Program-made: the position numbers and the translations under genes
In this document: positions 14,177-42,195 of the stretch, piece after piece
Layout of the letters: every line of letters starts with the position of its first letter
How positions within the stretch are numbered: position 1 is the first letter of the stretch
The notes under the pieces: generated by a model
What the model was told of the DNA's origin: nothing
The model's input: the letters and a program-made list of their open reading frames with translations, nothing else
The model's database searches: none
Source: Escherichia virus KFS-EC
Strand: one strand, 5' to 3'
Length of the DNA: 64,000 nt
Sequence record: MH560358

Positions 14177-17100
14177 TTAAAGCGCCTAGTGTAACTAGCT
14201 TGACAATAGAAAAATTGTCTGCTAATCAGGCGTATATCACATGGGATGACGTAGGCGAAAACTTCTTTTATTTTGTGGAGTTAGCCGAAACCAGAACACG
14301 AGACGGGGAGATCATCCCCGTCGATGAGTTAAGCTGGGTAAACCTGGGATATACTGCCGACCAAAACTGGTTTGAGGACAAAAACCTTTTTCCAGAATAT
14401 TATTACAAATTTCGTGTAGCAGTAGCCGCAGAAGGATTTGAACAAAGTAAATGGGTTGAGACAGAAGAATTTCAGACATTTAAAACAAACGCATATAATT
14501 TTTCTATGATGCGAGAGTTCAACCTTGCAAACGAGTTTGTTAAGCAAAAGTTTACATATGATAATCGTGATTATATTAAATTCAATACTGATTTAATTCA
14601 AGCATCATTGATGCAGGAAGATTTTGTTTTCAGTCCTGAATATGCAAACATCACAAATATTTCTAACAAAATTATTGTTGATGAAAACTTTCATGAAATA
14701 CAGGATCACATAGAAAAAGTTTGTATTGATATAAACCGCACTATGTTAGCGGAAATGAACGGTGTTTTGTACCTTTTCGAACGGTTCCAGCCGATCGTGA
14801 AAGTGTCAAATGATAAAGGTCAATCATGGAAAGCATATAAAGCGTTTAACGACCGTGTAGGCAATCCGGTTTCCCGTACATGCGTTTATCAGTCTAAAAC
14901 CACTACTTACGTTTTAGGATATGATCGAATCTTTTACGGACGACAAGCGAGCGATACTCGATGGAGCGCGGACGATGTTCGATTTAGTGATGATACGATC
15001 ACTTTTGCAAAGGTTGGTGACGAGAACGATTTAGGCTTTGACGTTGAGGTCTTTGGTGTATTTTCCAGATTAACAGGGGACACCACAAAATACGCCGAAG
15101 CTATGGCATGTAGTGATGACTATTTGTGGGTTGGTGCTAAGGATGTTATTCGCCGGATTCGTCTTAAGAATACTCCGGTTGATACCGTACAGGGTTCGCC
15201 TACATTTGGGGAAAAGATATTTGACCCTGATATTATCAGAGTAACAGGAAATGACAAAGCTGTTATTCAGAAAATGGATGTGATCGACGGTAAATTGCTT
15301 GTATTTGTTACTGGTGAAGTTAAACAGCGTTATCAAGATCCAACTAAACCAGAAAACGTTGTTCCGTCAGATGATGCGGGTGTATACTTAATTGGGAGTG
15401 ATGGTCTGTCTTTTCAGAGAGTATTTGGCAACACTCCGCAGGAAAGGGAATATATTCAGCATGGGTTCAGTAATATGTCAACCAATGGTGATGAGGTGTT
15501 TATAAGCCATTATAATCATCACTTCGAAAGCATTTTACCTGATCCAGAAACTGCCGCGAAATATGAATTGGGCGAAGCTGTAAAATATTCTCAGGAGCCA
15601 ACTTATCTAACTGATAAGAAAATACATCAAACTACTTTCAGAGCAAGTTATGATGATTTGCGTATTTGGGAGTTAGGACCGCAAGCGTATTATAATGAAG
15701 CCGACTATACATGGATGCGTCGAAATGGTGTTCGTGTGTGGATCACAAATGATAATCGCCCGTTGGTTGTTTATCCAGAGGTTATCTATACTCAAGAAGT
15801 TGATACGTCTGGCATTCTTGACCAAAATAGGGTCAACCGAGAAGTTTATGATAAAGGGACCGTGACCTGTTATCTTAACAATGTTAAATTTGAAGGATTC
15901 AAACAATATGCATCCGGTGTAATGTTCCATAAAAACACGGGAGAGATCATAGGTTTCTATCAATTTAATTATCGCGTTCGCGATCTGGTTGGTGTATATT
16001 GGAAGCCTACAAATGTAGCATTTGTTGCTGAACTGCAAAATCAGATCCGAGAGGTTCCCTGGGTTCCGGTTCACTACGATCGAGAGCAAGATCCAGATTT
16101 GCGACCTTTACTGAATAAGATGACACCGGATAGTTTTTTACTTGAGAACGAAAATTTCAGAAAATTCTCTGAATATTATCTGCAATTCTTAAGTGATGGT
16201 TCTGGAACATATTATAATAAACTAAAAAATCTGATTAAAAACAAATATCCACGCGAGCAAGATGCATATGAGTATCTTTGGTCAGAGATGAACAAACGAA
16301 ACATCTATGCAGATAAAAACAAGCGAGATGCGGTCGTAAGATTCTTCGAATCCCGCAAATCAGATTTTTATTCCACTAAGGGCGTGGAGGCTTCTTACAA
16401 GTTCTTGTTTAAGTTACTTTATAATGAAGATGTGGAAATTGAGGTTGAATCACAAGCCGGACTAGAGTATGATATTGTTGTTAGTTCAACGAACATTGAC
16501 GAGGATATCGTAGGTCGCACGATCTATACTCCAACCGGACGGGCTAACGTGACTTATCTTGAAAGGGAATATGAAGGTGGACGTCTACGCTGGCGAGTAG
16601 CCATTCATAACCTGATCGGGCGGTTCGAAGAAGGTCAAGTGATCAAATCAGAGAAAACAGCGTTTGAGGGGATGATCCTTGTTGGTGTACGTGGTAAAGA
16701 GTTGTTGAGTAGTTCGATCGACTATATCAACCGCTCACGAAGCCAATACACCATGAAGATTAAAAGTGCATTGCCAGTTTCGCGCTATGCAAATGATGTA
16801 ATGCGATTCGTTCATCCTGTCGGCTTTGGGTTTATCGGTGTTACCCTGCTTACGATGTTCATTAACAGCGGGTTGAGCATGAAGCACACCGAGACTATAA
16901 TTCAATCTCTGAAAAATTATAAGTTTGACAGCGGATTGCCTAGCGTGTATCCTGATCGGGTGGCAGACCTTGACGTTGACGGAAACATTAAGAAAGACCC
17001 GCTTACCGGAAAAGCATTATATTTGACTTCACCTTTAATTAGTGATGAATTTCCGGTTCCTCCTGAATATGATCAGGAGAACAGCGAATTGTTCCACGGA

Positions 17101-17259
17101 CTTAAAGCAAGCGAACGAAGATTTGCAATGAGTCCACTGTTTGACCAGTCGGCGGTAACATTCTCTATGTTCCGTGAACTTGTAGATAAACGGTTGAAAG
17201 ATAATATAGGGAATCCACGCGATCCGAAGAATCCGACACAGAGGAAAATTAATGGCTAA
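14173..17259 (+). CDS. 7: baseplate wedge protein gp7
   Basis: 1028 aa, position and size. Confidence 0.75.
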   Translation: MIKAPSVTSLTIEKLSANQAYITWDDVGENFFYFVELAETRTRDGEIIPVDELSWVNLGYTADQNWFEDKNLFPEYYYKFRVAVAAEGFEQSKWVETEEFQTFKTNAYNFSMMREFNLANEFVKQKFTYDNRDYIKFNTDLIQASLMQEDFVFSPEYANITNISNKIIVDENFHEIQDHIEKVCIDINRTMLAEMNGVLYLFERFQPIVKVSNDKGQSWKAYKAFNDRVGNPVSRTCVYQSKTTTYVLGYDRIFYGRQASDTRWSADDVRFSDDTITFAKVGDENDLGFDVEVFGVFSRLTGDTTKYAEAMACSDDYLWVGAKDVIRRIRLKNTPVDTVQGSPTFGEKIFDPDIIRVTGNDKAVIQKMDVIDGKLLVFVTGEVKQRYQDPTKPENVVPSDDAGVYLIGSDGLSFQRVFGNTPQEREYIQHGFSNMSTNGDEVFISHYNHHFESILPDPETAAKYELGEAVKYSQEPTYLTDKKIHQTTFRASYDDLRIWELGPQAYYNEADYTWMRRNGVRVWITNDNRPLVVYPEVIYTQEVDTSGILDQNRVNREVYDKGTVTCYLNNVKFEGFKQYASGVMFHKNTGEIIGFYQFNYRVRDLVGVYWKPTNVAFVAELQNQIREVPWVPVHYDREQDPDLRPLLNKMTPDSFLLENENFRKFSEYYLQFLSDGSGTYYNKLKNLIKNKYPREQDAYEYLWSEMNKRNIYADKNKRDAVVRFFESRKSDFYSTKGVEASYKFLFKLLYNEDVEIEVESQAGLEYDIVVSSTNIDEDIVGRTIYTPTGRANVTYLEREYEGGRLRWRVAIHNLIGRFEEGQVIKSEKTAFEGMILVGVRGKELLSSSIDYINRSRSQYTMKIKSALPVSRYANDVMRFVHPVGFGFIGVTLLTMFINSGLSMKHTETIIQSLKNYKFDSGLPSVYPDRVADLDVDGNIKKDPLTGKALYLTSPLISDEFPVPPEYDQENSELFHGLKASERRFAMSPLFDQSAVTFSMFRELVDKRLKDNIGNPRDPKNPTQRKING

Positions 17260-18247
17260 TGAAAATAGTGTGATCTATCGCTCAATCATTACTAGCAAAT
17301 TCAGAACAGAAAAACTTCTGAACTTCTATAATTCTGTAGGCGATGGAGCAAATCAAATTACAATTTATGGAACGTTTGGACGTTCGGAGCCGTGGTCAGA
17401 AAACGAAAAAGAGGTGGGCTTTGCCCCACCTTATCCGACCGATTCAACGGCTGGCGTTGTTGACATGTGGACCCATATGATGGGTGCGGTTAAGATTAAC
17501 AAATCACTTCTTGATGCGGTTATCCCCCGTAAAGATTGGGGTGATACCGGACAGGATAACCCGCGCACGTTCTTTATCAATGACGTTGTTGTTGTAAACT
17601 CAGCACCATATAACCGTACAGATGTTGGTAGCGGTTGGATGGTATATCGAGTGACAGATGTTCCTGATCGCGGTTACTGCTCTATTTCAAGCATTGACGC
17701 TAAGGTAGAGTGTTTGAAGCTGGGCGGAAAGTGGACACCTACCCATGAATCAATTGCGCCACCTGTAGGAAAGGGCGATTCTATTGATATGGGTGACGGA
17801 TATCGTTGGGAGTATTTGTACACAATTCCGCCTGATGCGGCTATCAACCGTTGCACCAATGAACATATTGTTGTTCCATTCCCTGATGAACTGCGACAAG
17901 ATCCGGCGCGTTGGGGATATGATAATGTGATCACCTGGTATAATGACTATAATCTGCTTTATCGGCTGAAAGTAGTAACTTTGCGTTTTCAGGCTTATAT
18001 GGACTCTGCGCAATTCACAACTACCGCGTTAGTGGGTAATACTGGTTTCCGTCAGTTAAGCATTATCCTTAACCCATTGGAAAAGAAAGCACGCCCTAGC
18101 GATCCAGACGTTAAAGCGGTTCAAGATAAGTACCGTCCGCAAGACTTAGAGCCACACTCAGGCGAAATGATCTACATGGAAAACCGACAACCTATCGTTC
18201 GGTCATTAGATCAAACAGAACTTGTTTCTGTATTGTTTGAGTTCTAA
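17252..18247 (+). CDS. 8: baseplate wedge protein gp8
   Basis: 331 aa, position and size. Confidence 0.7.
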   Translation: MANENSVIYRSIITSKFRTEKLLNFYNSVGDGANQITIYGTFGRSEPWSENEKEVGFAPPYPTDSTAGVVDMWTHMMGAVKINKSLLDAVIPRKDWGDTGQDNPRTFFINDVVVVNSAPYNRTDVGSGWMVYRVTDVPDRGYCSISSIDAKVECLKLGGKWTPTHESIAPPVGKGDSIDMGDGYRWEYLYTIPPDAAINRCTNEHIVVPFPDELRQDPARWGYDNVITWYNDYNLLYRLKVVTLRFQAYMDSAQFTTTALVGNTGFRQLSIILNPLEKKARPSDPDVKAVQDKYRPQDLEPHSGEMIYMENRQPIVRSLDQTELVSVLFEF

Positions 18248-18257
18248 GTGTATGATT

Positions 18258-18290
18258 TAAAAGCCAATTCGAGAGAGTTGGCTTTTTCCA
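18258..18290 (+). terminator. intrinsic terminator after gene 8
   Basis: AAAAGCCAA...TTGGCTTTTT hairpin with T-run. Confidence 0.6.
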
Positions 18291-18298
18291 TTTTTGGT

Positions 18299-18327
18299 GT
18301 TGACAATCTTATTTGGTAAGGTATAAT
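18299..18327 (+). promoter_or_regulatory. sigma70-type early promoter
   Basis: GTTGACA -35, 16-nt spacer, TATAAT -10, then GGAGGA SD and ATG at 18357. Confidence 0.7.
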
Positions 18328-18356
18328 ACACACATCTAAACAACGGAGGATAAATT

Positions 18357-18614
18357 ATGGCACGTCGTAAATTTACAGATAATTGTGAAGCAATTCAGGT
18401 ATCCCCTTGCGGTTGGGATGTGATCGCGAATGGTGAAAAGATCGGAGAGATCATCGATCATACTCATTCATCACTAGCCGATTATACCGATGAACTATGG
18501 GAGGGTATCAACTTCATGAATGACACTAAACGATTCAAGACTATTGATGAAGCTATACATTTTGTGTATAATCCAACTTTCGGTATGTGGAGTGATAGAA
18601 AATGGCACGCGTAA
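18357..18614 (+). CDS. hypothetical protein (85 aa)
   Basis: First gene of the inserted early module; strong SD. Confidence 0.55.
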   Translation: MARRKFTDNCEAIQVSPCGWDVIANGEKIGEIIDHTHSSLADYTDELWEGINFMNDTKRFKTIDEAIHFVYNPTFGMWSDRKWHA

Positions 18615-18934
18615 ATATTAAATTGCATTACACAATGAATAAAGCTAAGTTCCCAATGCAAAAGCATTACTATGGTCTACGTGCACAAGATCCTAAACTC
18701 TATGGTACTCATTGGTTTTGTAAACATGATAACCAATGGCACACATACGAAGAAATGCACGAGATGATGAAACAGGGTATTGAATTTAGTTATTCTAATT
18801 ATGACCATCGTATAACTTGCATTCGAAAATTGAAACGATGGATTCGTAAGAATCCGCAATTTAAAAACTTTGTGTTCTTTATGTCTCATACTTATCTGGG
18901 GCATAGCGTTACCGTAACAGCAAAGGTTAAATAA
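18602..18934 (+). CDS. hypothetical His-rich protein (110 aa)
   Basis: Second gene of the inserted module; overlaps neighbours. Confidence 0.5.
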   Translation: MARVNIKLHYTMNKAKFPMQKHYYGLRAQDPKLYGTHWFCKHDNQWHTYEEMHEMMKQGIEFSYSNYDHRITCIRKLKRWIRKNPQFKNFVFFMSHTYLGHSVTVTAKVK

Positions 18935-19773
18935 TGGCACGACTTTCTAAACAAGAACAAAAATTACACGACCGAGCAATGGAGTTGATTAATTCAGATC
19001 GTCCATTGACATTTGAAGAAAAAGAATTTTGCTATAATAACTATCATGGCGATGGGCTAGGTGGTTCCGGTGCATTCTTTACCCCAGAATGGCTTGCCTG
19101 GGATTTTACCATTGACGCACACTGCACAGGAAAAGTATTGGACCTTTGTGCTGGGATCGGTCGTTTATCTTTTTGTATGTTGCATCGTTGTAAGCCAGAA
19201 AAGATCGTATGCGTCGAACTCAATCCAGAATTTGCGCGGATTGGCAAGCGACTATTACCGGAGGCAGAATGGATCACCAGCGATGTATTCGAATTTGAGT
19301 CAAACGAGAAATTCGATGTTGTAATTAGCAATCCACCTTTCGGGGAAATCAATACTACCAACACAAAGGATGTATTTGAATATACTGGCGGTGAGTTTGA
19401 ATTTAAGGTTATGACGTTAGGCCAGAAGTTTGCCGATGTAGGTTACTTTATTGTTCCTTCTAGTTCCGCTGGTTTTGCCTATTCCGGCAGACCTTATTAT
19501 GATGAATCAGTGAAGTCTAATAAATATCTAAAATGGAGCAAACAAACTGGTTTGGTGACTTATGCCGGATGTGGGATCGATACATCAGTCTATCGCGATG
19601 AATGGCATAATACCAACGTTTTAACAGAAGTGGTTGAGGTTCGGTATTACGAGAAAGAAGCCGTAGAAGCGCCTAAATCGCGTCCTAACGAACAAATAGA
19701 AGAAAGTAAGGAGATTACCTTACCGAAACAGGAAACAGCGTCTGTGGCGCTCTCAGACTTGTTTGACATTTAA
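18934..19773 (+). CDS. putative N6-adenine (amino) methyltransferase, gamma-class-like
   Basis: Motif order FFTP (motif X-like), VLDLCAGIG (SAM-binding motif I), NPPFG (motif IV catalytic); substrate (DNA, RNA or protein) cannot be decided from sequence. Confidence 0.7.
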   Translation: MARLSKQEQKLHDRAMELINSDRPLTFEEKEFCYNNYHGDGLGGSGAFFTPEWLAWDFTIDAHCTGKVLDLCAGIGRLSFCMLHRCKPEKIVCVELNPEFARIGKRLLPEAEWITSDVFEFESNEKFDVVISNPPFGEINTTNTKDVFEYTGGEFEFKVMTLGQKFADVGYFIVPSSSAGFAYSGRPYYDESVKSNKYLKWSKQTGLVTYAGCGIDTSVYRDEWHNTNVLTEVVEVRYYEKEAVEAPKSRPNEQIEESKEITLPKQETASVALSDLFDI

Positions 19774-19848: not shown

Positions 19849-20703
19849 ATGGCACAAGTTCCAAAGAAAAGAATAGACACTGGTACAGTCGGCAATCCAT
19901 CGACTGGCGATATCTTATATGATGGCGGTAATAAAATTAACGATAACTTTGATTCGATCTATGACGCATTTGCGGACCAACGTCTAAAAGAGATTGATCA
20001 TGGTGCTGGTCGAATGGTTATTCATGCCACTGGATACTATCAGAAACACCCACGACAAAATTATGCAGGAACGGCGGTAGAGATTGGCAGTCTGCATGAT
20101 ATTGACACAACTCAAGGCGCATTAATAGCAATCCTTCCTAAAGCTAAAGTTGGTGAGGGTGTTGTGTTCATAAATAGTAACGGTAGCTTTTCGGCAACAA
20201 CACCACTAAACATTAGAACTCAAGCAGGAGATTCTATTAGCGGGTATTCCGGTGACGCGGTAATAACTCAACCTTTCTCAAAAGTCACCGTCTGGTGTAC
20301 TGCCGTCGAAGGTAGTAGGGTTACATGGCGGCTGGGCATCGAAAGTATGTTTACCGACACAACCACACCACTAGATAGGACAGTTAATGTAACTGGAGTT
20401 GCAACCAACGTTGCTATTGCAGCAAAAACAGAATATGTATCAATTAAACTACTAACAACCGCTAGCAATACGACGGGTTCAAAAATGCGCTCAAGCGAAA
20501 CTCTATTGATGATTGATGCCAGAGCCGGAAAAGTTTACGCGACAGAATATGCGGTTTTACAGAAAACAGAAGACGAATTATACACGGTTCGTTATTTCAT
20601 TGGTTCCGGCGATAAAGTATATGCAGAGTATAAGGCTACTGGCGAAAATATTCGTTTAGCAGTTAAAGCCACAGACACTATTAAAATCGGGGTTGCTACA
20701 TGA
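19849..20703 (+). CDS. 9: baseplate wedge / long-tail-fibre socket protein gp9
   Basis: N-terminus PKKRIDTGTVGNPSTGDILYDGGNKINDNF matches the recalled T4 gp9 N-terminus. Confidence 0.85.
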   Translation: MAQVPKKRIDTGTVGNPSTGDILYDGGNKINDNFDSIYDAFADQRLKEIDHGAGRMVIHATGYYQKHPRQNYAGTAVEIGSLHDIDTTQGALIAILPKAKVGEGVVFINSNGSFSATTPLNIRTQAGDSISGYSGDAVITQPFSKVTVWCTAVEGSRVTWRLGIESMFTDTTTPLDRTVNVTGVATNVAIAAKTEYVSIKLLTTASNTTGSKMRSSETLLMIDARAGKVYATEYAVLQKTEDELYTVRYFIGSGDKVYAEYKATGENIRLAVKATDTIKIGVAT

Positions 20704-23158: not shown

Positions 23159-24562
23159 ATGAATAACACTATTAATCACATAAAAGACGATGCACAGTAT
23201 GTTAAGTTTGACCCTACCGGAAATTGGCCTAGCAATATAAAAAACGTACAAGCGGCATTAGCCGCTATTCAGGGGTTTGCTATTGCAGGTCTTCCAACGG
23301 CAACCGAAGAAACAGCGGGTATTGCTGAAATTGCTACTCAAAAAGAAGTAGATGATGGGTTGGATGGAACTAAAATTGTTACCCCAAAAACATTGGCTGT
23401 TAAGCTGTCAAGACCGGACGCAACAAAATTTGTTAAAGGGATCACTCGCTATGCTAATAACGACGAAGCTATGGGCGATACTCCAAATATTGCAATTGGT
23501 CCTGATACATTAACCCATGTATTCGAGAAGAAGAAAGCAACGGAAACCGTACAGGGTACAATTAAAATTTGTTCTATGGATGCGGCAAAAATCGGTAGCG
23601 ATGACACTATGGCAGTTACGCCTAAAAAGATGCACGCTGCTATTGCTCAGATTGTTCCTGGGTTGATTCCAGAACAAAACACGGCGACCGAGTCCCGTGA
23701 GGGTTTAGTTAGACTGGCGACAAGCCAACAAACGCTTGCTGGTACTATCAGAGAAGGATTTGCCGTTAGTCCATATGCATTTTCCAACGCAAGAGCAAAT
23801 GAAAATCAGGCGGGTACGGTTAAAATTGCCTCATCCCAACAAATGATTGACGGTAATGACAACACAGTAGTAGTATCAGCACAAAAATTTGCGAACACTA
23901 AAGCAACCACTGGACAATTCGGTGTTGTTAAGCTAACAGATAATCCCGGTTCCGGTGAAGCAAATGCTGCGTTATCTGCAAATGCTCGTGTATTGCCTCT
24001 AAGCGGTGGTGTCGTTACCGGTGATGTGTATCGTCATAGCGGAGGCGACGGAAACCAGTTTACCACTAAAAACGAAATGGATGCATGGTGTATGCCAATT
24101 GGTGCAATTATTCTAACTGCATTCAATAGCAATGATCATGGCGCATTTAAAATTTGTAACGGGCAATGGTTGAATAAACACCAATATCCTACGCTATTTG
24201 CTCGCATCGGATTTACATATGGTGGTGACGGTGGAGACCATTTTGCTGTTCCAGATATGCGCGGTCTTGTTGCTCGTGGGTGCGATTGGGGAAGAGGTTT
24301 AGACCCAGGTCGTGGATTTGGTACTTATCAAGACGACACCATGCAACATATGACAGGTAACTTCCCTGTAGCTAACCGCTATCGCGGTTGGACTGGTGGT
24401 GCATTTACCATCACAGGTGGTCAATGGAGCACGAACTATAAAAACGGTGGCGGCGATGATTGGGGTAGTATTGTTAACTTTGACAGCGCAAGACAGGTTA
24501 GAACGTCTGGCGAAACTCGCGTTAAAAGCCTTGCATTAAACTACGTTATAAGGGTACAATAA
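23159..24562 (+). CDS. 12: short tail fibre protein gp12
   Basis: N-terminal YVKFDPTGNWP..., C-terminal ...ALNYVIRVQ similar to recalled T4 gp12. Confidence 0.85.
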   Translation: MNNTINHIKDDAQYVKFDPTGNWPSNIKNVQAALAAIQGFAIAGLPTATEETAGIAEIATQKEVDDGLDGTKIVTPKTLAVKLSRPDATKFVKGITRYANNDEAMGDTPNIAIGPDTLTHVFEKKKATETVQGTIKICSMDAAKIGSDDTMAVTPKKMHAAIAQIVPGLIPEQNTATESREGLVRLATSQQTLAGTIREGFAVSPYAFSNARANENQAGTVKIASSQQMIDGNDNTVVVSAQKFANTKATTGQFGVVKLTDNPGSGEANAALSANARVLPLSGGVVTGDVYRHSGGDGNQFTTKNEMDAWCMPIGAIILTAFNSNDHGAFKICNGQWLNKHQYPTLFARIGFTYGGDGGDHFAVPDMRGLVARGCDWGRGLDPGRGFGTYQDDTMQHMTGNFPVANRYRGWTGGAFTITGGQWSTNYKNGGGDDWGSIVNFDSARQVRTSGETRVKSLALNYVIRVQ

Positions 24563-26331
24563 TGATCGAACAATTAAACATTCGAAAGATCCCTAACGTC
24601 GATGGTGTCCCCGGAGAGGGACAACATTCTATTAGCTGGATTAAAAATGGTGAATGTCTAAGCGCAGCAACCACAGAAACAGGACACGAGGGGACGCTTA
24701 ACCGCGCCCCTTATGCGATTCAAGAAAATATTGTTCGTCTGGATGAAAATTCTAAGACAACGGTAACAAAAGTTAACGAAGTTGTTACAGCAGTTAATGA
24801 TATTAAAACTACTTTAGGCGCGGTTGCTGATGGTAGTATTATTGATATTGTCAATCAAACTATTGCAAAGGTTGAGTCTGTAGAAGAAAATTTAGGAGAA
24901 ACTTCAAGGACATTACAAACCACAGTAGATGAACTGGCGGAGACAGGAAAGAAAATTGGTGTTCGTCCGGCAGCAGATCCGAGTACACGAACAATATATG
25001 ATGATATTTCTTTCATCAAACAAGAATTGGGTGCTTTCCCTAACTTCAACATCAACGGTTATCCAGATCCAGGTAGTTCCGGTTCCGGTATCAAATATCG
25101 AGTTATCCAGAATACGGAAGCATTAAACAACCACGGTCAGCGAATCCGCCAACTAGAAAACGACTGGCAAGATTCTGACGTTGGAGAGCTAACAAAACAA
25201 GTTAACAAAATGCGAAGCGAGCTAGGCGACCCATCACTAGCAACACAGGACAATGTTTATCTTCGTCTTCGTACCAACACTCGCAATATCGCTAGTATAT
25301 CAAACGAAGTTCAGGAAGTAAAGAAAGCGATTCTATTTGAATCAATTCCTGATATCGGTACTAAAGTAACCAAGCTACAATCTGATTATACACAGCTTAA
25401 TGATGAAGTCAACGGCGTTGACGCTGGTATCCGTCCTCGTTTAACTCGTCTGGAAAATAAGATTGGCAATCCTCAATCCGCTGGAAGTATTGATTATCGA
25501 TTGACTAATCAAGAACGGGAATTTGTAGATCTTAAATCTATTGTCGGTTTCAGTGGTGCTGATGGCCTACGTGGTGAGGTTGCACGAATCACTAACACCG
25601 TCGGCACGGATAACGAGCGTCACACAATCGCTGGTCGACTGAAAATCGTCGAAAACACGCAAGGGCGTTTAGAAGCAAACGTGCAGGATATCGAGCAAAT
25701 GATCGGCAATCGAGATTCCGGTCTAATCGCTGGGGTTATTAAGCTGTCAAGCGACATGTACGGCAATCCAGAAGGAAGCACGCAGTTTGAACAAGATGGG
25801 ATCGTGAAAACTGTTAAGGCATTGAGCACGTCAAATGAAAGCAAGGTAACAGACGTTCCTGATGATGGGTTCCACTATCTCCGCAAACACGGAGAATGGG
25901 TCCAAGTTGCGTGGGCTGCTGGTGCATTTAAAAACACCACTCAGATTGATCTTACTCTAGACGAACAAGACCAATACAAAGGAATCCCGCTTACTGACAT
26001 GACCGCAGAAGTTCCAGTGCGTGGATTGGTTAAGAGCGAATCTCTTGTTACGGTTAACGACAAAGGCTTATTCCGTTGTGTTTTCCGTTGTTCTGTACAC
26101 GCGGCACATAACGCTACTTTCGTAGTCGGTATTGCTAAAAATGGTCAGATTGTACATGAGGTACGAAATGGTCATTATGGAACTGATGAATTAATTAGCT
26201 ATTCTACCAGTGCTTTCCTAAATATTGAAAAGGGCGACCGGATCGATATTCGTATTAAGGGTGTATCCGTAGAAGCATTAGCGCAACCGCTACAAATTAA
26301 AGAGTTCCTCTTTGGGATTTCTCCGGTATAA
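24562..26331 (+). CDS. wac: fibritin (whisker) with C-terminal extension
   Basis: N-terminus NVDGVPGEGQHSISWIKNGE, long coiled-coil-like middle, foldon-like FHYLRKHGEWVQV, then ~140 extra residues. Confidence 0.85.
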   Translation: MIEQLNIRKIPNVDGVPGEGQHSISWIKNGECLSAATTETGHEGTLNRAPYAIQENIVRLDENSKTTVTKVNEVVTAVNDIKTTLGAVADGSIIDIVNQTIAKVESVEENLGETSRTLQTTVDELAETGKKIGVRPAADPSTRTIYDDISFIKQELGAFPNFNINGYPDPGSSGSGIKYRVIQNTEALNNHGQRIRQLENDWQDSDVGELTKQVNKMRSELGDPSLATQDNVYLRLRTNTRNIASISNEVQEVKKAILFESIPDIGTKVTKLQSDYTQLNDEVNGVDAGIRPRLTRLENKIGNPQSAGSIDYRLTNQEREFVDLKSIVGFSGADGLRGEVARITNTVGTDNERHTIAGRLKIVENTQGRLEANVQDIEQMIGNRDSGLIAGVIKLSSDMYGNPEGSTQFEQDGIVKTVKALSTSNESKVTDVPDDGFHYLRKHGEWVQVAWAAGAFKNTTQIDLTLDEQDQYKGIPLTDMTAEVPVRGLVKSESLVTVNDKGLFRCVFRCSVHAAHNATFVVGIAKNGQIVHEVRNGHYGTDELISYSTSAFLNIEKGDRIDIRIKGVSVEALAQPLQIKEFLFGISPV

Positions 26332-26337
26332 GAAATT

Positions 26338-26361
26338 AAAGGGGCGTTAAGCCCCTTTTTC
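26338..26361 (+). terminator. intrinsic terminator after wac
   Basis: AAAGGGGCGTTAAGCCCCTTTTT. Confidence 0.65.
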
Positions 26362-26377
26362 GTTTATAGGTGATATT

Positions 26378-27310
26378 ATGTCAGGATATGTAACCAATAA
26401 CCCCAGAGAATTAAAAGACGCTATTCTGCGTCGTTTAGGCGCACCAGTAATTAACGTAGAAGTCACAGAAGACCAGATTTACGATTGTATTCAGAGAGCA
26501 CTAGAACTCTATGGAGAATATCATTTCGATGGTGTGAATAAAGGATATAAAGTATTTCGTGTTAGTGCAGAGCAAGCGCAACACGGGGTATTTGATTTAA
26601 GCGATTCTGGAGTATTCGCAGTAACTAAAATAATTCGAACAAACGTAGGTAGCGCGGCTACGATGGATGGTACTGCCGTTTATCCGTGGTTTACTGACTT
26701 TCTGTTGGGTTTAGCGGGTGTAAATGGCGGTTTAGGATCTGGCTGTAGTAAATTTTATGGTCCAAATGCAATGGGTGGTGATCTAGGATATTTCGAACAT
26801 CTTATGAGCTATAGAGCCACTATGCAAAATATGCTCAATCCGCTGCCAGATTACTGGTATAATAGCGCAAACGGACAACTTAAGATTACAGGAAACTTCC
26901 GAGAAGGTGATCTCATTGTTGTTGAATTATATGTTAAAAGCTATGTAGACGTTCCTGATATGATCGGCGCGGTTGCTGGTTATGCTCATGCGGGAGGATG
27001 TTCTACCGCTGGCGGGATTAGCGCCGTTTATGATAATCCAACTGCTGGTTTAAGCGGGATTGTTGCTGGCATGGGACCGATCAGTGAGAACAAGCAGGGC
27101 GCATATAATAACCGTTGGGTTAAAGACATGGCAACCGCTTTCACTAAGGAGGTGTGGGGGTCCATCATGGCTAAACATCAAGGTCTGCAATTACCCGGCG
27201 GTGTCACTGTTGATGGTATCCGAATCATTGAAGAAGCACGCGCCGACATTGAGAAATTGCGACAAGAACTACTTGACTTAGATCCACCATTTGGTATACT
27301 AATGATATAA
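26378..27310 (+). CDS. 13: neck protein gp13
   Basis: 310 aa; position and size. Confidence 0.7.
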
Positions 27311-27363: not shown

Positions 27364-28179
27364 ATGGAACATTATGTATACAAAATAACCAACAAAATAA
27401 ACGATAAGATTTATGTCGGTGTTCGGTCTTGTGATGGATTAGCCGAAGACGATACAAAATACATGGGAAGTGGAAAAATAATAAAACAAGCTATTAAACA
27501 TCATGGATTAGAAAATTTCACCAAAGAGATATTGTCAAAATTTGATAGCAGAGAAGATGCGGATAAAGAAGAGGCAAGGATTGTTACGGTTGATTTTGTC
27601 AAGAGAGAAGACACGTATAATATAGCAGAAGGCGGTGGAACTGTTTGTATGTGGAAGGTTTCTGATGAAGCAAAGATAGAAGAAATGAGAAAAAAGATCT
27701 CAGAGAAAAATACTGGAAGAAAACATACTAAAGATACAAGACAAAAGATGTCCGCATCTCAAAAGGGAAGGAAGCATACGGAAGAAACAAAAGAAAAGAT
27801 GAGGCAAAATAACTTAGGAAAAGTTATTGCAGAAGAGACAAAAGAAAAGTTAAGGATGATTAATTTAGGAAAAAGACACACCGAAGAAACGCGAAGAAAA
27901 ATGTCTGATTCACATAAGGGTCTATCCTTATCCGATGAGGTGAAGGATAAGATAAGACAAAAACACACAGGACGTGTTTTTACTAAAGAATGGAGAGAAA
28001 GAATTAGCAAATCTAGAATCGGAATAACTAGCACTAGATCAAGAAGAATAAGCATCAACGGAGTGATATACAATAGCATAGGAGAAGCTGTTATAAAATT
28101 AAACGTTAAGAGAGGATTGATTGTCGGAAGACTTAAATCAAATACCGATAAAAACAAAAATTATTTCTTCGTAGATTAA
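27364..28179 (+). CDS. GIY-YIG homing endonuclease with NUMOD3-like repeats
   Basis: N-terminal YVYKITNKINDKIYVGV (GIY-YIG) and repeated GRKHTxET(K/R)xKM motifs. Confidence 0.8.
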   Translation: MEHYVYKITNKINDKIYVGVRSCDGLAEDDTKYMGSGKIIKQAIKHHGLENFTKEILSKFDSREDADKEEARIVTVDFVKREDTYNIAEGGGTVCMWKVSDEAKIEEMRKKISEKNTGRKHTKDTRQKMSASQKGRKHTEETKEKMRQNNLGKVIAEETKEKLRMINLGKRHTEETRRKMSDSHKGLSLSDEVKDKIRQKHTGRVFTKEWRERISKSRIGITSTRSRRISINGVIYNSIGEAVIKLNVKRGLIVGRLKSNTDKNKNYFFVD

Positions 28180-38629: not shown

Positions 38630-40216
38630 ATGAAAACTACCAAAGAACTGATGGAAAAATGGTCCCCGCTGCTGGAAAACGAAAAACTGCCGGAAATCGC
38701 AACTGCGTCTAAGCAGAAACTGGTTGCTAAAATTCTGGAATCTCAGGAAGCGGATTTTGCTGTAGACCCGATCTATAAGGATGAAAAAGTTGTTGAAGCA
38801 TTCGGTGGCTTTATCGCAGAAGCCGAAGTTGCTGGCGACCACGGTTATGACGCATCTCAGATCGCGGCTGGTCAGACTACTGGTGCAATCACCAACGTAG
38901 GTCCGGCTGTTATCGGTATGGTTCGCCGTGCTATTCCTAACCTGATCGCATTTGATATTTGTGGCGTTCAGCCGATGAGCACTCCGACTAGCCAGATCTT
39001 TGCAATCCGTTCTGTATACGGTCCAGATCCGCTGAAATCTGGTGCTCGCGAAGCATTCCATCCGATGTATGCACCTGATGCGTTCCATAGCTCTCTTGCT
39101 GCTAAAGGTGCAACTGTAGGTTCACCAACTGGTACTGCATTCGCTAAACTAACTCTCAGCACTCCGATTGAAGCAGGTGATATTGTACACCACACCTTCG
39201 CAGAAACTGGCATTGCATATCTGCAAAACGTTACCGCAGGACAAGTAACCCCGACCCAAGCTGGCAGCGAGTCAGATGATGAAGTTGTCATGAAGCTGAT
39301 GGAAGAAGGTAAACTGGCTGAAATCGCTTTCGGTATGGCTACTTCCATTGCCGAAATTCAGGAAGGCTTTAACGGTTCCAGCAATAACCCGTGGGCTGAA
39401 ATGTCAATGCGTATTGACAAACAGGTTGTTGAAGCGAAATCTCGCCAACTGAAAGCCCGTTACTCTATCGAAGTTGCGCAGGATCTGCGTGCTGTACACG
39501 GTATGGATGCTGACGCTGAACTGAATGCTATCCTGGCTAACGAAGTTCTGCTGGAAATCAACCGTGAAATCGTTGACGTCATCAACTTTACCGCTCAGGT
39601 TGGTAAGACTGGTATGACTCAGACCGTTGGTTCTAAAGCTGGTGTATTTGACCTGCAAGATCCGATCGATACTCGCGGTGCTCGTTGGGCTGGTGAATCC
39701 TTCAAATCTCTGATCTACCAGATCGACAAAGAAGCTGCTGAAATCGCTCGTCAGACTGGTCGCGGTGCTGGTAACTTTGTTATCGCTTCCCGTAACGTTG
39801 TAAACATTCTGGCTTCTGCTGATCAGGGTATCAGTCTTGCTATGCAGGGTGCTGCAAAAGGTCTGAATACCGACACCACTAAAGCTGTTTTCGCTGGTGT
39901 TCTGGCTGGTAAGTACAAAGTATTCATCGACCAGTATGCTCGTCAGGACTACTTCACCGTAGGTTACAAAGGCGATAACGAAATGGATGCTGGTATCTAC
40001 TATGCTCCGTATGTTGCTCTGACTCCGCTGCGTGCAACTGATCCGCAGTCTTTCCACCCGGTTCTGGGCTTCAAGACTCGCTACGGCATCGGTATTAACC
40101 CGTTTGCAGACAGCAAATCCCAGGCACCGTCCGCTCGCATCACCTCCGGTATGTTGAGCAAAGACAGCGTAGGTAAAAACGCATACTTCCGTCGTGTATG
40201 GGTTAAAGGTTGCTAA
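38630..40216 (+). CDS. 23: major capsid protein gp23
   Basis: LPEIA, GDHGYDASQIAAGQTTGAITNVGPAVIGMVRRAIPNLIAFDICGVQPM closely match the recalled T4 gp23. Confidence 0.95.
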   Translation: MKTTKELMEKWSPLLENEKLPEIATASKQKLVAKILESQEADFAVDPIYKDEKVVEAFGGFIAEAEVAGDHGYDASQIAAGQTTGAITNVGPAVIGMVRRAIPNLIAFDICGVQPMSTPTSQIFAIRSVYGPDPLKSGAREAFHPMYAPDAFHSSLAAKGATVGSPTGTAFAKLTLSTPIEAGDIVHHTFAETGIAYLQNVTAGQVTPTQAGSESDDEVVMKLMEEGKLAEIAFGMATSIAEIQEGFNGSSNNPWAEMSMRIDKQVVEAKSRQLKARYSIEVAQDLRAVHGMDADAELNAILANEVLLEINREIVDVINFTAQVGKTGMTQTVGSKAGVFDLQDPIDTRGARWAGESFKSLIYQIDKEAAEIARQTGRGAGNFVIASRNVVNILASADQGISLAMQGAAKGLNTDTTKAVFAGVLAGKYKVFIDQYARQDYFTVGYKGDNEMDAGIYYAPYVALTPLRATDPQSFHPVLGFKTRYGIGINPFADSKSQAPSARITSGMLSKDSVGKNAYFRRVWVKGC

Positions 40217-40302
40217 TATAAGCCAATTCCTGAAAAACTCCGGTCGGGTGAAATACCCGACTTATCATAAACCTTATGACAGTGTAAAGTGTTAATTCCA
40301 AA

Positions 40303-40331
40303 GGGAAGACTCGAAAGGGTCTTCCCTTTTT
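40303..40331 (+). terminator. intrinsic terminator after gp23
   Basis: GGAAGAC-TCGAAAGG-GTCTTCC hairpin + T-run. Confidence 0.7.
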
Positions 40332-40347
40332 GCGTATTATAACCTGT

Positions 40348-40355
40348 TATAAATA
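40348..40355 (+). promoter_or_regulatory. late-promoter-like TATAAATA
   Basis: Exact TATAAATA at the start of the 23-24 intergenic region. Confidence 0.4.
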
Positions 40356-40716
40356 AGGTTGCAAGCCTATATTCTATTGGGAGCGAAAATCGATACACAC
40401 AACAAAGACAGGAAGATGCGGAACATCGGTGGGTTGCTAGCCTAAATCCGGTGGATATGATATGTGATTTCTTTTGATGCTGGATTTATTAAAACACAAC
40501 AAACAATTCCACCAATTTTCGTAGTAACTGCATGGCAAAGGGACCAATGAATGAAATGAGCGTTCATGTTGATATTGGGTCGGATAGATTTGGTAGATAT
40601 ACAGATCTGGTGTATGCCGACCTTGTTATGACATTCCAGCGTGACGCTAGCGATAATTTTTGGTTTTGGTACGCTGTTCCCTGAATTAACCCAAAATTCT
40701 CCATAAGGAGGAATGC

Positions 40717-40869
40717 ATGAGTAAGAAAGAAAACAGCTATGTTATGACTCGTAAGGAATACAACGAATTGATGTTAGCATTAGCTTATGCAATTATTCGT
40801 TCTGATCATGCAATTAATCTGGTAAACAAAGTTAACCGTAGCGTTGATAATGTTTCTAGGAAGAAGTAA
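40717..40869 (+). CDS. small hypothetical protein (50 aa, MSKKENSYVMTRKEYNELM...)
   Basis: Below track cutoff; strong TAAGGAGG SD upstream and a hairpin + T-run terminator directly downstream. Confidence 0.5.
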   Translation: MSKKENSYVMTRKEYNELMLALAYAIIRSDHAINLVNKVNRSVDNVSRKK

Positions 40870-40879
40870 GTTTATTTTT

Positions 40880-40906
40880 GGAATCCTTCGGATTCCTTTT
40901 TCTTTT
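40880..40906 (+). terminator. intrinsic terminator
   Basis: GGAATCC-TTC-GGATTCC hairpin + T-run. Confidence 0.65.
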
Positions 40907-40908
40907 TG

Positions 40909-40916
40909 TATAAATA
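40909..40916 (+). promoter_or_regulatory. T4-type late promoter (TATAAATA)
   Basis: Exact TATAAATA 38 nt upstream of the gp24 ATG at 40954. Confidence 0.6.
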
Positions 40917-40953
40917 TGATATATCCATTAAGGCAAATACAGGATTCATAAGC

Positions 40954-42195
40954 ATGACTCATATTTTTACTGAACTGTTGCGGGAATCTACTTCCTCAGT
41001 AGCTAACCAGACAGCGCGACCGCAACTATTATCATTAACTCGCGCGGTAAACAACCTGATTTTCTCTGATCTGGTAGCAATCCAACCAACGGATCAACCA
41101 GTATCTGCATTGTACGGCCTACGTTATCTTAATCGTGATGGTCAGATGACTTTCCGAACTGCTGCAACCTACGGTGGCGCGGCTGGTGATCGCACAGAGA
41201 TTGAAGAGTTTTCAAAAGAAAAATCTTATGACGAAGGCGCACTGTTCAAATCAGGCGATGTTGTATACGAAGTTGTGACCGCTGGTACAGTCGGTGAAGA
41301 TGCCGAAACTCCAGAATCTGCGATCTTTAAAGGCGTAATGACAAACAAAATTCGTTTCTATAGCGATTGTGCATCGGTAGAATACTTTGAAGATAAAAAC
41401 ACCGAAATTGTGTCTACCTCTATGCAGTTTGACAAGTGGCAAGTTAATGTAGGTTCTCGTAAACTGAAAACCTCGTTCACCACTGAATTAATGCAGGATC
41501 TTGAGGCAAGCCAAATCAACTCTGAAAACTCTGTAATTGATCTTCTGGCTACTGTTGCTTCCGAAGAGATCAACAAAGATATTATTCAGAAGTTGATCAC
41601 TGTATCATCTCGCTATAAAATTAAAGGGATCACCCCTGATGGCGTACTTTCTCTCGTTAGCGTTCAGGATGCACCATCACAAGCGCGTGAACTTTACCGC
41701 TATGCTTGCGAGATGAGCAATCAAATGTTGCGGACTTCCTCCTTTGCTGGTACATACGTTTTGGCGTCTTCTCGCGTGGTTGGCCTCCTGCAATCATCCG
41801 GTTGGATGGAAGAAACCGACAATGCTCTAAGCGAAGGTCGTCTACGTTGCGGTCTGGAAGTGTACGCAGACACGACAACACCTTTCGATTATATGCTCGT
41901 TGGTTGTAAGCACATGATCGGTGATATGGAGAGTGTAGGTTCTCTGTTCTACTCCCCATATACAGAAGCCGACGGCGCTGGCGCGTATAAGAGCGTAATT
42001 GACCCTAATAGCTTCCAGCATCATGTAGCTATTATGAATCGTTATTCACTCTCTGTCAACCCATACACATCAAAAGTTGATCAGGAAGAACACCAGGTCA
42101 TCAAGGGTGACGATTGGGGTAAAATGGCTGGACGTTCAGAAATGTCCTACATTTTAGGAATCGAACTGCCACCACTTGAGATTGACAACGCTTAA
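40954..42195 (+). CDS. 24: head vertex protein gp24
   Basis: ELLRESTSS...RPQLLSLTRA matches the recalled T4 gp24 N-terminus; track start 40906 lies within the late promoter so 40954 is preferred. Confidence 0.9.
   Translation: MTHIFTELLRESTSSVANQTARPQLLSLTRAVNNLIFSDLVAIQPTDQPVSALYGLRYLNRDGQMTFRTAATYGGAAGDRTEIEEFSKEKSYDEGALFKSGDVVYEVVTAGTVGEDAETPESAIFKGVMTNKIRFYSDCASVEYFEDKNTEIVSTSMQFDKWQVNVGSRKLKTSFTTELMQDLEASQINSENSVIDLLATVASEEINKDIIQKLITVSSRYKIKGITPDGVLSLVSVQDAPSQARELYRYACEMSNQMLRTSSFAGTYVLASSRVVGLLQSSGWMEETDNALSEGRLRCGLEVYADTTTPFDYMLVGCKHMIGDMESVGSLFYSPYTEADGAGAYKSVIDPNSFQHHVAIMNRYSLSVNPYTSKVDQEEHQVIKGDDWGKMAGRSEMSYILGIELPPLEIDNA

Follow-up and report, generated by a model that had tools for sequence, protein, structure and literature searches.

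The fibritin of phage T4 ends a few residues past its foldon (487-aa chain in 2bsg), whereas the wac product of Escherichia virus KFS-EC (MH560358) continues for 138 residues after W451 and is thus not of the T4 type. This raises the question of whether the extension is a genuine part of the whisker protein, which fold it adopts, and what it would do at the distal end of a neck whisker. The locus was studied within a window of 64,000 nucleotides, a term that we use for the whole stretch of DNA that was analysed. A preliminary description of this stretch had proposed a fibritin with a globular domain appended beyond a foldon-like motif, a domain that could serve as an extra adhesin or environmental sensor.

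The wac gene and its surroundings

The ORF is an ordinary wac gene of an RB49/JSE-like Krischvirus, a structural gene that is annotated correctly and does not represent a new system. At the DNA level it is 99.8% identical to wac of Escherichia phage vB_EcoM_G2248 and about 95% identical to that of JSE, and it matched 56 records of the phage collection, all of them RB49-like Krischvirus in which the gene is annotated as wac or fibritin neck whiskers. The protein matches the cluster 'fibritin [Escherichia virus KFS-EC]' (P0008) with 100% identity, and PHROG 1056, 'fibritin neck whisker', covers aa 1 to 582 (E=3.8e-180); NCBIfam held no model for it. The gene lies between gp12 and gp13, as do the fibritin genes of T4-like phages, and this placement, the PHROG match and the colinear alignment with T4 fibritin described below bear out the initial identification of the protein as fibritin.

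The coordinates of the gene, its parts and its neighbours are collected in Table 1. The stop codon of gp12 overlaps the wac ATG, with gp11 further upstream, and the wac stop codon occupies positions 26329-26331; position 25840, from which the preliminary description counted its domain, is codon 427. In the terminator-like element downstream of wac, the hairpin proper spans 26338-26358, and a putative terminator is annotated at the same site between wac and gp13 in the G2248 record. The PF26809 assignment of gp13 was made on the same-position 310-aa gene that directly follows an identical wac in four other loci (L009-L012). Only one opposite-strand ORF of at least 40 aa lies within 25840-26331 (40 aa, at 25941-26063), and the searches for tRNA genes and Rfam families found none in the window.

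Table 1. Location of wac, its segments and its flanking features in the window
Feature	Position	Strand	Basis
wac (fibritin / neck whisker protein, 589 aa + stop codon)	24562..26331	+	ORF list
N-terminal neck-attachment domain, aa 1-84	24562..24813	+	Alignment to T4 constructs
Segmented coiled-coil shaft, aa 85-427	24814..25842	+	Colinear T4 fibritin alignment
Foldon-homologous segment, aa 428-451, KVTDVPDDGFHYLRKHGEWVQVAW	25843..25914	+	Sequence homology and modelled strands
Predicted C1q/TNF-like (BclA_C-like) jelly-roll head, aa 452-589	25915..26328	+	
gp12 short tail fibre, upstream of wac	23159..24562	+	Pfam Collar E=7.8e-16, annotations
gp13 neck protein, downstream of wac	26378..27310	+	PF26809 Phage_T4_gp13, G2248 annotation
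Intrinsic terminator-like hairpin AAAGGGGCGTTAAGCCCCTTT and T-rich tail, wac/gp13 gap	26338..26366	+	

Between gp13 and gp14 there is a free-standing GIY-YIG homing endonuclease gene (271 aa, 27364-28179, + strand), the product of which has SegE_GIY-YIG, NUMOD3 and I-TevI DNA-binding domains and matches TIGR01453. This gene is present at the site in only 5 of about 56 Krischvirus records, and G2248, the closest relative in wac, is without it. Contigs with a 100%-identical fibritin carry no endonuclease, a 194-aa SegE-like gene at the gp13/gp14 site, or a 251-aa I-TevI-like gene between gp14 and gp15; the gp13-gp15 region is a hotspot of mobile endonuclease turnover. The baseplate cluster is interrupted between gp8 (17252-18247) and gp9 (19849-20703) by three genes at 18248-19773 (+ strand), two of which are small (18357-18614 and 18602-18934) and have no family match, while the third (18934-19773) encodes a 279-aa SAM-dependent methyltransferase with an NPPF motif and Pfam matches to MTS (9e-10) and Eco57I methylase (5e-6). 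Finally, a 690-bp stretch (40217-40905) from gp23 (38630-40216) to gp24 (40906-42195) contains only two 50-aa ORFs. A T4-type late-promoter motif, TATAAATA, is found at 40348 within this gap, and a second one at 40909, just inside the gp24 start.

Foldon homology and fold of the head

Up to the foldon, the protein follows the T4 plan. The N-terminal constructs of T4 fibritin, 1ox3 and 2ibl, align with aa 7-84 (E about 3e-14), so that the conserved N-terminal domain of about 50 aa by which fibritins attach to the neck is present, and aa 7-429 are colinear with T4 fibritin 6-433 (2bsg, E=1.3e-50) through the coiled-coil shaft. A second 2bsg segment pairs aa 427-449 with T4 458-480. The Pfam profile Fibritin_C (PF07921) matches aa 368-450 (E=1.2e-24, 86.7 bits against a cut-off of 21) over profile positions 2-91 of 93, and its end coincides with the end of the motif FHYLRKHGEWVQVAW, aa 437-451. 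When the 27-aa T4 foldon was compared with the C-terminal 174 aa by BLASTP, 10 of 19 positions were identical (E=7e-7), and the residues shared with T4 include P433, D435, G436, Y439, R441, K442, G444, E445, W446 and V447. An AlphaFold2 (AF2) model places the foldon beta-hairpin at aa 438-442 and 445-449 (strands E11-15 and E18-22). The homology of aa 428-451 to the T4 foldon is genuine and beyond chance, and on this point the Fibritin_C match, the 2bsg alignment and the BLASTP result uphold the early reading of the motif as foldon-like. The strings quoted in that reading, RCVFRCSVHAAHNATFVVGIAKNGQIVHEV and IDIRIKGVSVEAL, are present in the translation, and the stretch beyond the motif, put there at about 140 residues, counts 138 (aa 452-589) up to the stop codon.

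Sequence profiles of known domains only faintly recognise these 138 residues in the window protein itself. The Pfam C1q profile scored 14.4 bits against a cut-off of 23.7 (E=0.045) and BclA_C 13.4 bits against a cut-off of 38 (E=0.074), both below threshold, so that by curated profile thresholds the window protein falls outside the C1q/TNF superfamily. An alignment search with the full-length fibritin retrieved 17 homologues with 31-100% identity. When 15 C-terminal fragments, drawn from these homologues, the window, P0001/P0002 (see below) and P0005, were scanned singly, BclA_C matched 12 of them (best E=3.9e-7) and C1q matched 10 (best E=0.0023). One protein, P0022, had a precomputed PF18573 hit; PF28231 (STB2_C), seen on some homologues as a 'faint' precomputed hit only, was disregarded.

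AF2 prediction of aa 428-589 with a 15-sequence alignment gave a model with a mean pLDDT of 89.5 and a pTM of 0.83, consisting almost entirely of strands, in agreement with the beta-rich character expected at the outset. A single-sequence prediction of aa 416-589 reached a pLDDT of only 50.8 and was kept out of the fold search. In the accepted model, an all-beta sandwich begins three residues past the foldon hairpin with no linker, the C-terminal STFL turn of the T4 foldon being replaced by the first strand of the head. The sandwich has the ten-strand jelly-roll arrangement of the C1q/TNF superfamily, although its identity to the heads of that superfamily is only 9-18%. Among its structural matches, 9k09 and 8ke9 align over 142-145 residues, which exceeds the jelly roll alone. 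On the basis of the model, aa 452-589 are best described as a C1q/TNF-like jelly-roll domain, and since neither Pfam profile reaches its curated threshold on the window protein, this assignment rests on the predicted structure together with the homologues. The separate globular domain postulated beforehand is thus recovered in prediction, with a fold that had been among those put forward for testing. C1q-like heads at the ends of phage fibres are very common; a Foldseek search of BFVD returned 490 matches at E<=0.001.

At the sequence level, the head leads only to other fibritins. Among PDB sequences, phmmer with the head and a profile search retrieved foldon constructs and no others. Run exhaustively against 1.84 billion cluster representatives, phmmer recovered only two genuine matches to the head, the fibritins P0003 (77%) and P0005 (30%); two other hits, P0004 and P0006, were rejected as internally repetitive proteins with scores that are sums of many weak repeats. 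Only P0001, P0002 and one fragment came out of a word-indexed protein search, whether the query was the head alone or a 4-sequence alignment. P0001 and P0002 are ENA metagenome gene calls of 110 aa that consist of the last 110 head residues from an internal Met start, and one of them sits on a 50-kb contig. Rather than free-standing head proteins, they are probably wac genes that were truncated or mis-called.

Distribution and conservation

The head was found by tblastn in all 56 of the 56 Krischvirus records, once per genome and always under wac, with 75.7-100% identity. It shares 77.1% identity with that of RB49 (NC_005066) across 140 of 140 residues and 90% with that of JSE, and the expanded C-terminal domain is homologous to RB49 gpwac throughout, which places the protein in the RB49 type. 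tblastn also detected the head in the fibritin of Serratia phage WSPA at 30% identity, and, used as a query itself, the WSPA head led to the fibritins of Serratia phages 4S, PS2, Muldoon and SP1 and of Cronobacter phage VP8. From IMG/VR came just three more loci, all Krischvirus-like.

A further branch came from structure. The second hit of a Foldseek search of predicted viral structures was a 159-aa 'uncharacterized protein' of Klebsiella phage KPV15, which has the foldon-like sequence AYLRKQGEWF followed by a head, and hhalign of this head against the window module gave a probability of 95.9% (E=6e-9, 156 columns). As the 159-aa CDS adjoins a 421-aa CDS annotated as 'neck whiskers protein' and precedes gp13, it is the 3' part of a frameshift-split wac. 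The split gene lies at 16804-18569 of its locus (L008; KY000080 100803-102568), and the split is likely a sequencing error, many other structural genes in the record being split as well. The KPV15-type module is present in about 170 further records, mostly of Klebsiella Jiaodavirus and also of Raoultella, Erwinia, Yersinia and Salmonella phages, where it is annotated as fibritin or hypothetical protein and in one case as a chaperone.

The frameshift in KPV15 is evidence that this locus can be misannotated, and it is the nearest that we come to support for regarding the extension as an artefact, in which read-through, a gene fusion or faulty assembly would have linked wac with an unrelated ORF downstream; nothing in the window itself speaks for it. 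An intact ORF of about 587-589 aa is found in 56 independent phage genomes and in metagenomic contigs, its stop codon is followed by the terminator hairpin, and the foldon hairpin and the jelly roll form one continuous chain in the model. The artefact explanation is effectively refuted by the conservation of the intact ORF, and we give it next to no credence.

Foldon-plus-head is a conventional fibritin C terminus in several Straboviridae genera. The preliminary description had stated that its proposal would fall if the motif proved unrelated to the T4 foldon and the extra residues proved to be part of an ordinary fibritin ending in close relatives; the homology of the motif has stood, and the exceptional status of the extension has not. 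Foldon-plus-head may even be the ancestral fibritin ending of enterobacterial T4-like phages, with the bare foldon of T4 as a derived truncation. If so, the published view of 'alien' C-terminal modules acquired by lateral transfer would need revision, because Krischvirus, Serratia and Cronobacter phages and Jiaodavirus (subfamily Tevenvirinae) all carry homologous modules. A bolder proposal couples such an ancestry with a knob that binds a ligand, either as a lectin-like sensor or adhesin for glycans of the host envelope or as a pH- and ion-sensitive latch for the long tail fibres, and we regard this combination as speculative and rather unlikely.

Within the Krischvirus-like set retrieved, homologues have 589 aa, with one of 587 aa. 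Identity in aa 1-50 is 84-88% for most Krischvirus homologues (80-88% overall). Among near-full-length homologues the foldon is the best-conserved segment, at 79-100% in the Krischvirus-like set, and conservation of the head equals or exceeds that of the shaft (90% versus 76% in JK32, 91% versus 83% in P0009). Within the head, variation falls mainly at aa 459-487; the loop NGHYGTDEL (534-542) shows none or almost none.

These figures bear on the suggestion that the head is an accessory adhesin or lectin for a host glycan or protein, which would provide reversible attachment through the neck or a cue for tail-fibre release. Many structural neighbours of the head are indeed receptor-binding heads, but a shared fold says nothing about the ligand, and across phages from different E. 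coli and Shigella hosts the head is at least as conserved as the shaft and lacks the hypervariability typical of host-range determinants. As judged from the sequences, the pattern would not be that of a host-range adhesin under diversifying selection. In cyanophage A-1(L), the CBD alone bound no cells, and the carbohydrate-binding module of its neck fibre bound no host. Large receptor screens assign specificity in Straboviridae to gp37, gp38 and gp12, and a screen signal in the neighbouring fibritin gene is, in our own reading, most simply explained by linkage to gp12. Our analysis yielded nothing in favour of a role as adhesin or environmental sensor, which we consider unlikely.

Proposed role and comparison with known systems

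In C1q, in collagens VIII and X and in BclA, the C1q-like head nucleates the trimeric stalk and sets its register. A comparable arrangement can be proposed for the whisker, which would be a fibre trimer of four parts, namely, a neck-binding domain, a segmented coiled coil, a foldon hairpin and the 138-residue jelly-roll head. At the tip of the whisker, the head would sit on the fibre axis as a compact knob of three chains. Its trimeric state is expected because fibritin is a trimer (PMC3797505), and the hairpin and the head should form one trimeric unit at the tip because the head abuts the foldon without a linker. Foldon and head together would act as a C-terminal nucleus that registers the three chains so that the coiled coil can zip up, a task that falls to the bare foldon in T4.

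Published work on fibritin assembly is in line with such a role. Letarov and Krisch (2013, PMC3797505) distinguish eight C-terminal forms of fibritin, the 'RB49 type' among them. According to that review, which cites Letarov et al. (2005) and Latypov et al. (2007), only the T4 and JS98 fibritins trimerise with the small foldon motif alone, while others, including that of RB49, need additional expanded C-terminal sequences for the trimer to fold. The T4 foldon is thus reported to suffice where the RB49 one does not, and the predicted fold offers a structural hypothesis for why the RB49 fibritin needs its expanded C terminus. The behaviour of C1q-like heads, the T4 foldon and the RB49 result are the reasons why we take trimerisation and nucleation of folding to be the primary role of the ending.

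The same RB49 result could also be accommodated if the foldon-like hairpin were vestigial and the head a passive stabilising cap with no specific partner, and C1q/TNF trimers are typically very stable. A vestige would hardly be expected to be the most conserved segment of the protein, as the foldon is here, and the several head loops that are invariant or nearly so suggest more than a scaffold. A mere cap appears improbable to us, somewhat more so than an adhesin.

Besides a part in folding, the knob may provide the distal surface encountered by the long tail fibres during attachment and retraction, by analogy with the C terminus of T4 fibritin, for which evidence summarised in PMC3797505 indicates an interaction with a motif close to the long-tail-fibre knee. 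We looked for a gp36 type common to phages with head-bearing fibritins, a comparison that is confounded by phylogeny; KPV15 gp36, the gene for which may be truncated, resembled T4 gp36 (50% over 91% of the query) more closely than it did the Krischvirus protein, which lends no support to a shared knee module. Taken as a whole, the explanation of the ending as a trimerisation and folding nucleus that also presents a distal knob to the long tail fibres is the one that we think probable. Residues 452-589, and the loop 534-542 in particular, provide a defined target for work on the handling of long tail fibres by the whiskers in RB49-like, Jiaodavirus and Serratia phages.

Among known heads of the predicted fold, those of the BclA C-terminal domain, ExsFA/BxpB, gC1q, collagen VIII/X NC1 and EDA-A1 belong to the C1q/TNF superfamily and cap trimeric stalks; here the stalk is an alpha-helical coiled coil with a foldon and not collagen. 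Phage heads of the same type, such as the A-1(L) gp33 CBD (8ke9), the A4 tail fibre (9k09), the receptor-binding protein of phage 1358, PRD1 P5 and TM4 gp23, share with the modelled head both the fold and a distal position on a trimeric phage fibre. They differ in that their carriers are host-contacting tail fibres or vertex spikes, whereas the head described here is on the neck whiskers, the documented role of which in T4 is the handling of the long tail fibres.

Among fibritins, that of T4 (1aa0, 1avy, 1rfo, 2bsg) is homologous in the N-terminal domain, the coiled coil and the foldon hairpin. A non-terminal foldon motif has a precedent in the JS98 type (PMC3797505), but there the first foldon is followed by a short coiled-coil spacer and a second foldon and not by a jelly roll. 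From the RB49-type fibritins of RB49, Phi1 and JSE there is no substantive difference, the family, the architecture and the gene position between gp12 and gp13 being the same. The foldon-plus-head ending is lineage-typical and was already described in 2005 and 2013. In the literature, however, the RB49-type C-terminal moiety is called 'alien' or 'unrelated to T4 Wac', as by Golomidova et al. (2022, PMC9569957) for RB49-like phages, whereas here the foldon is retained and continues into a predicted C1q/TNF-like jelly roll. Our literature search found no paper linking fibritin with a C1q/TNF-like domain, and what is new here is the assignment of this fold, the finding that the foldon has been kept rather than exchanged, and the homology between the modules of Krischvirus, Serratia phages and Jiaodavirus. 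The foldon is widely used as a trimerisation tag, and its natural use would appear to be often an internal one, in which it is fused directly to a C1q/TNF-like head.
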